Notes under the pieces: generated by a model
Told to the model about the DNA's origin: nothing
Database searches by the model: none
What the model saw: the letters and a program-made list of their open reading frames with translations, nothing else
Shown here: positions 8,307-36,119 of the stretch, piece by piece
Layout of the letters: the number at the start of each line of letters is the position of its first letter
Position numbering within the stretch: position 1 is the first letter of the stretch
Position numbers and translations under genes: made by a program
Origin: an uncultured bacterium
Lineage (GTDB): Bacteria > Patescibacteriota > Minisyncoccia > Phycocordibacterales > DATDWN01
DNA length: 64,000 nt
Assembly (NCBI GenBank): GCA_963727715.1
Contig: CAVSGX010000007.1
Span: 36,688-100,687, forward strand
Direction of reading: 5' to 3'

Positions 8307-9741
8307 ATGGAGTATATACTTTCACAACACACTAACCGGAAAGAAAGATAAATTTTCACCTATTAATGACAATTTTGTGGGTATTTATTCCTGTGGACCG
8401 ACGGTTTACTGGAATCAGCACATCGGACATATGTACGCTTATGTGCAGTGGGATTGTCTTGTCCGCTCGCTCAATTATTTCGGTTACAAAACAAAATGGG
8501 TAATGAATTTGACCGATGTTGGTCATCTGACTTCCGACGAAGACCTGGGCGTTGATAAAATGGAAAAAGGGGCCGAGCGCGAGGGTTTATCTGTCTGGCA
8601 AATCGCCGACAAGTATATTGCCCAATTTCGCGATAGCTTGGAACTCTTAAACATTCACGAACCGGATGTTTTGTGCCGAGCTACCGAGCACATTCCGGAA
8701 CAAATAGAACTGATTGGAAAAATTGAAAAAAACGGTTTTGCTTATAAAACTAAAACCGGTTTGGTTTTTGACACCGAAAAATTTCCGGCCTACGCCGATT
8801 TCGCCCATTTGCATCTTGAAGATCAGAACGCCGGCAGTCGCGTCAGCGTTGATCCGAAAAAGAAAAAGCCGTGGGATTTTTTGCTTTGGATTACAAACCA
8901 GCCGAATCATATTATGAAATGGCCTTCTCCGTGGGGTGTTGGCTTCCCCGGCTGGCACATTGAATGCACGGCTATGTCGGTCAAATATCTCGGCGAAAAT
9001 TTTGACATTCACACCGGTGGCAAGGAGCACATTCCGGTGCATCACACCAATGAAGTGGCGCAGGCCTTCGGCGCTTTCGGGCATCAGACGGCCAATTTTT
9101 GGTTGCACAATGAGTGGCTTCTTTTTGACGGACAAAAAGTCAGCAAGTCGCTTGGCAATTCCATTTTGGTTTCCGACCTTGTCGCCCGCGGTTTTGACCC
9201 GCTATCACTCCGCTATCTCATAATGACCACGCACTACCGCACCGGTTTGAATTTCACATGGGAGAGTCTAACCGGCGCACAAACGGCATTAAAAAGATTA
9301 AGAAGTATTGTGCGTCACATGAGAGAAGATATTCAAATGAAAAATAGCGGTTACAAACCACATGATTCCATCTTACAAGAAAAAAAAGAAATTTTTAAAA
9401 GTTTTATAGGTGATGATCTTGGTATGCCACAAGCTTTAGCATTTGTGTGGGAATTAATACAAAATACCAAAGTCCACGAAACTGAAGCATATGAGTTAAT
9501 TAAAGATTTTGATAAAGTGCTTGGACTAAAATTGATAGAAGAAAATTTAAAAATGATACCGGAAAATATACAGAAACTAGCAAGAAAGATGAATAAAGCA
9601 CGTTTTTTTGATAAAGATTTTGAAAAAAGCGATAAAATACGTGAGGAAATAAAATCTTTTGGATTTGAGGTTAAAAATCTTGAAAATGGGGTTTATGTTG
9701 GGGGGAAAGATTATTACAACCAAATTTTTCCATTCCAATAA
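8307..9741 (+). CDS. cysS: Cysteine--tRNA ligase (apparent 1-nt frameshift right after the ATG)
   Basis: HIGH (NQHIGHM) and KMSKS (KVSKSLGN) motifs. The conserved N-terminal residues [17 protein letters not shown] are encoded upstream of the track start 8377 but in frame +1 relative to ATG 8307, so there is an indel near 8310 or a non-canonical start. Confidence 0.85.
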
Positions 9742-9823
9742 ATATAATCTCCCCAGCTTTTCCACTTATTTTGCACTTTTTGGCAAGTGGCGGAGAAATT
9801 TTCCGATGTGATACAATCCTGAT

Positions 9824-11215
9824 ATGCCTCAATCCACCTCCTCACAATCAATCATCTCTCGCTTGCGTATGCCACCGCAAAATCTGGAAGCGGAGATGGC
9901 TTTCCTCGGCTCGGTTATGCTTCGGCCGGAAGCGCTTTATGATGTCATTGACACAGTTACGCCGGATTCTTTTTACTCGGACAAGCACCGCATCATTTTT
10001 GAAACAATGCTGGAACTTTGGAGCAAGCACCAGCCGATTGACCTTTTGTCCGTTTCCTCGCGTTTGTCTGAAAAAGGTTGGTTGGACCAAATCGGTGGCA
10101 ACATTTACCTGACCGAGCTGGTTAATGTCGTGCCATCGGCCGGCAACATCGCTCACTACGCCGGCATCATTCAAAAAAAACACATTATGCGTCGGCTGAT
10201 TGAGGCTTCGGACCACATCAATCAAATCGGTTACGACGAAATTTTGGAAATGGAAGAAGCTTTGGACTCGGCCGAGAAAAAACTTTTCGAAGTAACTTCC
10301 ACTCACGGCTCGCATAAATTCACTCCGCTCAAAGACGAACTCTCGGAAGCGTGGGAAAGGTTGGATCGCCTGCACAGCTCGGAATCAACTTTGCGTGGTG
10401 TGCCGACCGGTTTTGCCGAACTAGACAACAAACTTTCCGGTTTGCAAAAATCCGATTTGATAATTTTGGCCGGACGGCCCTCGACCGGCAAAACTTCGCT
10501 GGCATTAGACATCGCTCGTCAGACAGCTGTGGCTCACAACACTTCGGTTGGAATTTTCTCGCTGGAAATGTCATCGCAACAATTGGTTGATCGTATGCTT
10601 TCGGCTCAAGCCAATGTTGACGCTTGGAAAATGCGCACCGGCAAACTGTCGCGACAGGACGACTTTGAGGCCATCCGCGAAGCTCTGGACAAACTTTCCA
10701 AAGCGCCGATTTACATTGACGACCAGCCGGGCAACAACATTTTGAAAATGCGCTCTGTCGCCAGACGGCTGAAAAGCGAGCACGGACTCGGCCTGATTAT
10801 CGTGGACTACTTGCAACTGATGGTGCCGACCCAAACCAGAAACGACAATGTCGTCCAACAAGTGACCGAAATTTCCCACTCGCTGAAAAACTTGGCCCGC
10901 GAACTGGATGTGCCGGTTTTGGCTCTGTCGCAACTCTCCCGCGCTGTGGAGTCGCGTGGCGGTCGGCCACGTCTTTCCGACTTGCGCGATTCCGGTTCAA
11001 TTGAACAAGATGCCGACATTGTGATGTTTATTCATCGCGAAGACAAATACAAAGAAGCCAGCGAAAAAACAAATGTTGCTGAGATTTTGATTGAAAAGCA
11101 CCGAAATGGCGAGACCGGCAAAATTGAACTTTTCTTCAACGACAAAAAAGCCACATTCCAGAGTTTAGATAAATCAAACTTTAGTGGCGCCGAAAAGGAG
11201 TTTACAGATTTTTAA
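9824..11215 (+). CDS. dnaB: Replicative DNA helicase DnaB
   Basis: N-terminal DnaB domain (PPQNLEAEMAFLGSVM). Walker A (GRPSTGKTSLAL). RecA-like C-terminal domain. Confidence 0.9.
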   Translation: MPQSTSSQSIISRLRMPPQNLEAEMAFLGSVMLRPEALYDVIDTVTPDSFYSDKHRIIFETMLELWSKHQPIDLLSVSSRLSEKGWLDQIGGNIYLTELVNVVPSAGNIAHYAGIIQKKHIMRRLIEASDHINQIGYDEILEMEEALDSAEKKLFEVTSTHGSHKFTPLKDELSEAWERLDRLHSSESTLRGVPTGFAELDNKLSGLQKSDLIILAGRPSTGKTSLALDIARQTAVAHNTSVGIFSLEMSSQQLVDRMLSAQANVDAWKMRTGKLSRQDDFEAIREALDKLSKAPIYIDDQPGNNILKMRSVARRLKSEHGLGLIIVDYLQLMVPTQTRNDNVVQQVTEISHSLKNLARELDVPVLALSQLSRAVESRGGRPRLSDLRDSGSIEQDADIVMFIHREDKYKEASEKTNVAEILIEKHRNGETGKIELFFNDKKATFQSLDKSNFSGAEKEFTDF

Positions 11216-11248
11216 CGACGCAAATTTCATTTTGTAATGATTTTTTAC

Positions 11249-11254
11249 TATAAT
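11249..11254 (+). promoter_or_regulatory. TATAAT -10 box 6 nt upstream of the recR ATG (leaderless-type arrangement)
   Basis: tactataat-cacctt-ATG. No SD. Confidence 0.35.
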
Positions 11255-34269: not shown

Positions 34270-34346
34270 ACGAAAAATATAGCACAAAATAACGAAATTA
34301 AAAACCGCGATTGCTTGCAATTTTTAATTTTTGAATTAGTTGTGAA

Positions 34347-34760
34347 TTACTGTCCCACCATTGCCCTTGTCGTCGTGCCGAAGCCGGCTGGACGGATTTG
34401 GATGGAATTGGCGCTTTCGCTACCATCGGAATTGGCCGTGCCAGTAACCATAATATTAATTCCGGTTTTCAAATCGGAAACAGAACCGGAAACGGTTTTT
34501 GTAACCGGAGTTGACGGTGTGAAGAAAATAATTTGCGAACCGCCGGCTGGCAAACTGATGGTCAAACTGTTTGTGTCAACCGAAACCACTTGGCCTGTTA
34601 CTGCCCCACCGGCTCGAGTGCCTCCCACTCCACGAGCAAAGCTGGCTCTGGCCGCCGTAGCTGCGGCTGTGGCGCTACTTTTGCCGGCTTGCATACCGAA
34701 ATAATACGCTCCACCGGCAACAATTATTAAAACTATAACTGCAATGATTTTATTTTTCAT
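34347..34760 (-). CDS. Secreted/membrane-anchored beta-rich protein, paralog family also seen at 51678-52487
   Basis: N-terminal TM. Thr/Gly/Ser-rich repeats. Last gene of the efflux operon. Confidence 0.45.
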   Translation of the reverse strand: MKNKIIAVIVLIIVAGGAYYFGMQAGKSSATAAATAARASFARGVGGTRAGGAVTGQVVSVDTNSLTISLPAGGSQIIFFTPSTPVTKTVSGSVSDLKTGINIMVTGTANSDGSESANSIQIRPAGFGTTTRAMVGQ

Positions 34761-34837
34761 ATATTGATGATTAATGAGTAAGGTGTAAAAAGTAAAAACA
34801 CAAATTTTTTTACTTCTTACATCTTACTCTTTACTTA

Positions 34838-36119
34838 TTATTCGTATCTCAATGCTTCAATTGGATTCAATTTGGCTGCCCGCCGAGCCGGATAATATCC
34901 GAAAATAATGCCGATAGCTGCCGACACACCGAAAGCTAAAAAAACCGGTATAAGAGATATTTGAGTTTGCAAAATCCCGAAAATGGACATACCAAAAGCT
35001 ATGGCCCACCCGAGTATTACACCGATGACCCCGCCGATAAAAGTCAGCATAACCGACTCAACCAAAAATTGAATGGTGATGTCACGACTTTTGGCGCCGA
35101 TGGCTTTGCGCAAACCGATTTCTTTTGTTCTTTCAGTGACAGTGGTTAACATCATATTCATAATGCCGATACCTCCGACCAAAAGCGAAATGCCGGCTAC
35201 TGCCGCGAGAAGAATGGTGAATGTGTTTGCCACGCTGGATGCTGTAGCTACAATGTCAGCCTGATTTAACGTGCTGAAATCGGCCAAAGTTGGATTGCTG
35301 ATATTGTGTCGAGCTAAGAAGAAGCGAGGTGATTTGATTTTGAACGTCAGTCATATCGCCCGAATTGTCAGCCTCAACACTGATGGTCGTGACATATTGA
35401 TTACCGACCAAAAATCTCTGGGCGGAAGAAATCGGAATAAAAATCATATCATCTTGACTTCCAAAACCATTACCACCTTTGGCCACCGTTTCGCCAATAA
35501 TTTTGAATTGAATGCCTTTGATTACAATAATTTGTCCGACCGGATCGTTTGTGCTGAACAAATCAGTTGCTACGGTTGGACCGATGATTGCCACCTTGGA
35601 CATATCGGTTACATTTTCATCACTGACGAAAGATCCTTCACTGACAGCGACATTGCGCACTTGCGGATAAGACGATGTCACGCCGACGACCGAAACATTC
35701 GTATTCTGTCCTGAAGCGGTCACTTGGTAGCGACCAGAAACTTCCGGAGCAACAGCTTTGGCTGTGGTAACTTGTGTGGCAATAGCGTCGGCATCAGCTA
35801 AAGTTAGTGATTTGGCCGAACCACGACCGGCAGAAACGGCAGTGCCCGGTCCGCGTGCGGCTCCAGGCTCAACCAGAACCAAATTGGAACCGATTGATTG
35901 AATGCTGGATTGAATCGAACCCTGAGACCCTTCTCCGATAGCCACCATGGCAATAACCGAACCGACGCCGATAACAATACCAAGCATGGTTAGTCCGGAG
36001 CGAACCTTGTTGGCCGACAGGGCCACGTATGTTTCTTCAAAAATATCTTTGGTTTTCATTTTATTTTTCCATATGGTGTTTAATCTGCCTCTTTTTGTGA
36101 CTTTTGCTGTCACTGACAA
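34838..36119 (-). pseudogene. MacB-like ABC transporter permease (FtsX domain), split by one frameshift near 35290-35320
   Basis: ORF 35256-36119 is the N-terminal TM plus periplasmic domain. ORF 34838-35287 is the FtsX four-TM domain. The paralogs at 54953 and 56255 are intact and ~420 aa. Could be a sequencing indel. Confidence 0.7.

Follow-up and report, generated by a model that had tools for sequence, protein, structure and literature searches.

Single-base frameshifts in groEL, cysS and macB of a draft patescibacterial genome are probably assembly or consensus artefacts

The DNA analysed here (the window) is a 64,000-nucleotide (nt) stretch from an uncultured bacterium, contig CAVSGX010000007.1, in which three conserved genes, groEL, cysS and the gene for a MacB-type permease (macB), are interrupted by single-base indels (Table 1). 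The window's own gene fragments are present among the proteins of one NCBI/ENA contig (118,823 bp), and the window is thus part of a deposited metagenome-assembled genome (MAG). The best matches of GroEL, CysS and the products of neighbouring genes are in Patescibacteria (Paceibacterota, Minisyncoccia, Zambryskibacteria-like MAGs). In all three genes, the rejoined pieces match full-length orthologues once one base per site is removed. The independent data for comparison came from the Logan k-mer assembly of run ERR11594402, which represents the same population as the window; Logan contigs were fetched via exact-protein look-ups, and four of them match the window almost perfectly, covering 23.5 kb. 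A literature search on the run accession found no paper naming the run.

The periplasmic core domain of the permease (MacB_PCD; open reading frame (ORF) 35256-36119) and its FtsX domain (ORF 34838-35287) are encoded in different frames. One of the four matching contigs, L087, encodes an intact protein of 406 amino acids (aa) that contains both domains and is free of the extra C found in the window. Seven of the substitutions that separate the two sequences in the surrounding tract are synonymous third-position changes and one exchanges Asn and Asp, and the adjoining 9.06 kb (26197-35251) show no differences at all. Because eight single-nucleotide polymorphisms (SNPs) fall within 0.86 kb and seven of them are synonymous, two real, selected haplotypes co-exist at macB, and L087 follows a different allele from that of the deposited contig. 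The indel is absent from these same-population data, on a haplotype eight SNPs away, and an artefact is directly supported at this one of the five frame-breaking sites. A protein of 149 aa that clusters with the C-terminal MacB fragment (P0127, contig L006) was considered and rejected as a fragment at a contig end of another species (80% nt identity).

Across the 23.5 kb, the four Logan contigs are 99.7-99.98% identical to the window, with 18 substitutions and a single indel, which is the extra base of macB. The SNPs in L001, L005 and L088 are transitions without exception and look like natural microdiversity. Substitutions are unevenly spread, with eight in 0.86 kb at macB and seven in 2.7 kb at 2.1-4.8 kb, a pattern suggestive of recombination tracts or of a switch between haplotypes in the consensus. 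Products of the frameshifted genes (groEL, 440 aa; macB, 267 and 149 aa; cysS, 454 aa) were found in the NCBI/ENA record only and never in Logan, and 7 of the 12 intact window proteins tested are present in Logan as well. Logan contigs break off at repeats, one a palindromic element between genes (19140) and the other a gene for an IS30-like transposase (24596); the end of L001 inside the latter is consistent with a repeated mobile element.

The groEL coding sequence is spread over three frames, and removal of three bases yields a GroEL that aligns with its relatives from end to end and shares 89% aa identity with the closest intact orthologue (P0001). This orthologue is encoded on three contigs (L002-L004), all with the groES-groEL-NUDIX context that is also seen in the window, and nucleotide alignment against these contigs (81% nt identity) reveals exactly three one-base surpluses, at 18850, 18724 and 18697. 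The residue at codon 100, where the second surplus lies, varies among relatives (Ser, Ala or Gly), and the invariant MGLGVMG of GroEL is regained when one base is dropped at 18696/7. Further downstream, a compensated pair consists of an extra A at 18485 and a wobble base lost 9 nt on, between 18477 and 18476, and converts the clade-conserved (S/T)FG into IIW. All five groEL indels, this pair included, lie within 380 nt. In the adjacent GroES, ~35 Lys-rich residues (MKKKMMKKPTKKTKSKPAKK...) precede the Cpn10 domain as an N-terminal extension; GroES of the closest orthologous locus, with 131 aa, is equal in length.

In cysS, a 478-codon open frame (8305-9738) and the ATG at 8307 are offset by one base, and the frame of the ATG ends after 14 codons. 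The match to tRNA-synt_1e, the catalytic domain of class-I CysRS, begins at codon 17 of the 8305-9738 frame, upstream of GTG 8377, the first in-frame canonical start. When one base is dropped at 8312/3, the product begins with M(E/D)..., in line with relatives. Given that CysS of the relatives starts with M(D/E)IY... or MEI..., exactly at the window ATG, comparison of the sequences identifies ATG 8307 as the true start; ATA 8314 was ruled out as a non-canonical start, as relatives begin M(D/E)IY... where the ATG lies.

An earlier note on this DNA had described groEL as broken into three ORFs, with an extra T near 18850 and two more frame changes within 18690-18715, the CysS N-terminus as out of frame with ATG 8307, and a frame switch of the permease gene near 35300. 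The alignment with orthologues places the first groEL surplus at 18848-50 as described, the CysRS domain match in the 8305-9738 frame agrees with the description of cysS, and the permease switch corresponds to the extra C at 35318; the two additional groEL changes also exist, at or near the proposed range, and are now placed at 18724/5 and 18696/7. The note erred in reporting no frame that cleanly encodes the conserved GroEL segment, since the invariant sequence of the clade, rather than the textbook EGMKNVAAGANPMG, is recovered by one-base removal at two sites. All five of the indels then counted exist as frame breaks, but the count was too low, the compensated groEL pair being the sixth and seventh.

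Table 1. Coordinates of the genes, indels, compared contigs and other features in the window
Feature	Coordinates	Strand	Remarks
groEL	17364-19025	-	spread over three frames; 552-aa GroEL after removal of 3 bases
groEL frameshift 1	18848-18850	-	GAA ATT [T] ACT; TTT where orthologues have two positions
groEL frameshift 2	18724/18725	-	ATC TC[A][C] GAA; surplus at codon 100 wobble position
groEL frameshift 3	18696/18697	-	ATG GG[C][G] CTC; surplus at Gly109 wobble position
groEL compensated +1/-1 pair	18476-18485	-	CC[G][A] TCA TTT GG[-] GTG
cysS	8307-9741	+	ATG 8307, then surplus base in GA[G][T] at 8312/8313
MacB-type permease gene (MacB_PCD + FtsX)	34838-36059	-	split in two ORFs
macB extra C	35318	-	CTT CT[T][C] TTA in window, CTT CTT TTA in L087
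Allelic-difference tract, window versus L087	35252-36109		8 substitutions and 1 indel in 0.86 kb
L001	19140-24596		1 substitution versus window
L005	36629-41807		2 substitutions versus window
L088	2123-4840		7 substitutions versus window
L087	26197-36355		8 substitutions, 1 indel versus window
Palindromic element	8180-8306	+	
Palindromic element	19026-19175	-	
Palindromic element	20620-20757	+	
groES	19183-19578	-	
IS110-family-like transposase (PF02371)	5197-6501	-	
Stretch without coding potential	6502-7250		~750 nt
IS30-like transposase (HTH_38 + rve)	24574-25530	-	
Tandem GH130 genes	27457-31419	-	two genes
C9 run	60988-60996		G9 on the coding strand
ORF with C9 run	59973-61025	-	

A palindromic AT-rich element of ~110 nt occurs three times in the window, each copy immediately preceding a start codon (that of cysS, of groEL and of a SBP_bac_5 gene). 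It has outer arms TCTAATTTCTAATTA ... TTTAGAAATTAG and inner arms CCAAT.ACCAA ... TTGGT..TTAGGG, and its last letters are TAATTAGGTCAATTAAAAATTA. Its 35-nt core has three occurrences against zero expected, and L001 ends inside one of the copies. The element could be a promoter or leader, a repeat resembling miniature inverted-repeat transposable elements, or a small RNA.

Constraint on the corrected proteins was assessed at conserved alignment columns (for GroEL, 245 columns with at least 97% conservation among 119 orthologues; for CysS, 165 columns). Corrected GroEL departs from the consensus at one of its 245 columns, the median of the orthologues being one as well, and this single deviation, G182W, lies within the compensated indel pair; corrected CysS departs at 3 of 165 columns (orthologue range 0-9). 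Judged from these alignments, neither corrected protein shows any sign of decay, and this speaks against decaying pseudogenes. Both groEL and cysS are normally indispensable, and this, together with the lack of decay, makes a real loss of either gene unlikely. In addition, substitutions far outnumber indels, so that five neutral indels in groEL would predict many more substitutions than are seen, and a viable cell with at least three independent hits in groEL plus one in codon 2-3 of cysS would be implausible.

The other genes of the window that might be split were examined with a six-frame coding-potential map followed by Pfam checks of each suspicious same-strand ORF pair, and no further frameshift was detected. 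The overlapping same-strand pairs 31334/29425, 32522/31782, 12578/12210, 45584/46320 and 16295/15546 each have complete, separate domains and were rejected as frameshifts. The non-coding stretch of ~750 nt (Table 1) was ruled out as a shattered gene; it flanks the gene for an IS110-like transposase. Gaps near 15 kb are accounted for by tRNA and Rfam scans.

Several searches were aimed at independent copies of the remaining sites. Logan look-ups for the NUDIX protein, a Zn-ribbon protein, RecR, the first groEL ORF and the cysS ORF returned nothing, and no Logan contig was obtained for 8-19 kb. Exact look-ups of six corrected proteins (four GroEL variants, MacB and CysS) gave no match, the MacB query having Ser where L087 has Ala. 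Homology searches with corrected GroEL (full length and N-terminus) and with a concatenated query of the GroEL and CysS N-termini retrieved no near-identical independent copy, JGI metagenome pattern scans over the groEL and cysS sites yielded zero matches, and the nearest match in a scan of GTDB species representatives is 78% identical.

Taken together, we consider the frameshifts to be probable artefacts of assembly or consensus calling in a draft MAG, in the general sense, and intact copies of groEL, cysS and macB are most likely present in the living cells. Frameshift-causing indels are a well-documented defect of long-read consensus assemblies (PMC9262707). As in the indel errors of draft or long-read assemblies (IDEEL-type tests, proovframe), single-base indels split conserved genes (PMC9262707), the split products are confined to the draft record, and an independent assembly disagrees at one site. 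However, the classic errors of draft assemblies are homopolymer-length errors that occur genome-wide, whereas the indels described here are non-homopolymer, nearly all insertions, clustered and, at macB, located among strain SNPs. In a census of the whole window (threshold A/T of at least 6 or G/C of at least 5), none of the 301 homopolymer runs, 256 of which lie within intact ORFs, hosts an indel, and the longest run at any indel is TTT. Classic homopolymer-length error is therefore not the cause, which eliminates that subtype and not an artefact in general. The earlier note had placed several of the indels in homopolymer-like contexts, and this holds weakly for a single site, 18848-50 (TT to TTT), the only one that resembles a short homopolymer extension. 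Its preference for consensus or assembly error over pseudogenes fits the intact macB of L087 and the retention of conserved residues, although the homopolymer type of error finds no support, and the comparison with orthologues that it called for shows that corrected GroEL and CysS keep essentially all residues conserved in the clade.

With respect to the mechanism, six of the seven events are insertions, and the net frameshifts are all +1 (one extra base). Five of the six insertions place the surplus base straight after a wobble base from which it differs (TC[A][C], GG[C][G], CC[G][A], GA[G][T] and CT[T][C]), a weak pattern, given that about half of random insertions would fit it and five of six gives p ~0.1. 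The sole deletion removes a wobble base, and at macB, L087 carries one of the two bases of the doublet. Two or more closely related haplotypes exist in the sampled population, and the errors appear to fall where these differ. We tentatively propose a mechanism for this: a consensus or polishing step applied to a two-haplotype pile-up might keep both alleles of a synonymous wobble SNP, with a net shift of +1, and the same step might keep neither allele at another such SNP, with a net shift of -1. Retention of both alleles, which we regard as possible but by no means secure, would explain the insertions-only net shifts, the non-homopolymer sites and the clustering in short stretches.

A competing account within the artefact interpretation is random indel noise from low-coverage long reads with no tie to strain variation, the account to which the long-read errors of the earlier note correspond. 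All the events are single bases, and ORF-breaking single-base indels are typical of long-read assemblies (PMC9262707). We nevertheless find this account doubtful in view of the strong clustering (five indels in 380 nt of groEL against one in the 23.5 kb checked with Logan), the fact that the 256 long homopolymer runs in ORFs are all unaffected, and the coincidence of the macB event with the SNP tract.

Apart from the weakness of the doublet pattern, several points weigh against an artefact or against the mechanism proposed for it. The indels differ in type from classic homopolymer errors. If the record is a pure short-read de Bruijn assembly, every contig k-mer existed in the reads and the doublet mechanism would be inapplicable. 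The intact macB belongs to a haplotype other than that of the window and so is no strict proof that the latter is intact. In the collections searched, neither the groEL 5' region nor the cysS start of this strain was found in an independent copy, and four of the five frameshifts (those in groEL and cysS) are accordingly judged indirectly. Finally, the macB frameshift is linked to eight haplotype-specific SNPs of biological appearance, seven of them synonymous.

This last point would be expected of real mutations in one haplotype, either loss-of-function alleles that are still segregating or pseudogenes of very recent origin, in a strain that exists beside an intact one. The frameshifted sequence does stand in the public record, many bacteria can do without MacB, and frameshifted conserved genes are shared with the pseudogenes of reduced or host-dependent bacteria, in this case also in a small-genome lineage (Patescibacteria). 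In contrast to genuine pseudogenes, however, constraint is not relaxed, with no excess of substitutions at conserved residues of corrected GroEL and CysS, an intact macB allele is present in the population, and the genes affected are normally essential (cysS, groEL). The only indel in the 23.5 kb compared is missing from the independent assembly, and five indels within 380 nt of groEL, a compensating pair among them, also speak against real mutations. We thus regard real mutations as an unlikely explanation of the data set, although frameshift alleles that are real and limited to a single haplotype may exist for macB; such alleles are improbable for groEL and cysS.

It is highly improbable that the extra bases are real in one co-existing strain that survives with broken groEL and cysS on the products of a host or sister strain, or that they are decoded by an unknown +1 recoding or editing process. 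Expression of the genes despite the extra bases, by programmed +1 ribosomal frameshifting, transcriptional slippage or RNA editing, merits next to no credence: although the five net shifts are all +1, as needed in prfB-type frameshifting, and each segment keeps conserved protein sequence in its own frame, the sites have no shared shift motif, in-frame stop, rare-codon pause, A/T run of at least 7 (hence no long A/T homopolymer for slippage at any of them) or CUU UGA-type site, the 119 GroEL and 111 CysS orthologues are all unsplit and the shift is thus unconserved, an unshifted macB occurs in the same population, the cysS site lies in codon 2-3, and three shifts would be needed in one gene. 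A common frameshift motif or a methylation-type motif was looked for at the sites, and none was seen.

Several other features of the window were also noted. The IS110-family-like transposase gene lies in a stretch of ~50% GC, compared with ~42% elsewhere, and the non-coding stretch of ~750 nt is on its 5' side; IS110 elements carry a non-coding guide ('bridge') RNA in the region 5' of the transposase. Two tandem GH130 (mannoside phosphorylase-like) genes, encoding proteins of ~640-660 aa, adjoin genes for a mannose-6-phosphate isomerase-type cupin and a phosphomannomutase, and this neighbourhood, which is partly present in the relative represented by L002, looks from its gene content like a small mannoside-utilisation cluster. 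The C9 run, ~30 nt inside the 5' end of its ORF, is possibly a phase-variable tract or an error-prone spot.

The artefact interpretation implies no biological novelty: these are ordinary artefacts of low biological significance. If the errors are indeed tied to strain microdiversity, a base doublet at the wobble position would be a useful diagnostic for MAG curation. The practical consequence is that groEL, cysS and macB are wrongly annotated as fragments in a public draft genome, and surveys of gene content in Patescibacteria could mistakenly score these genes as lost.

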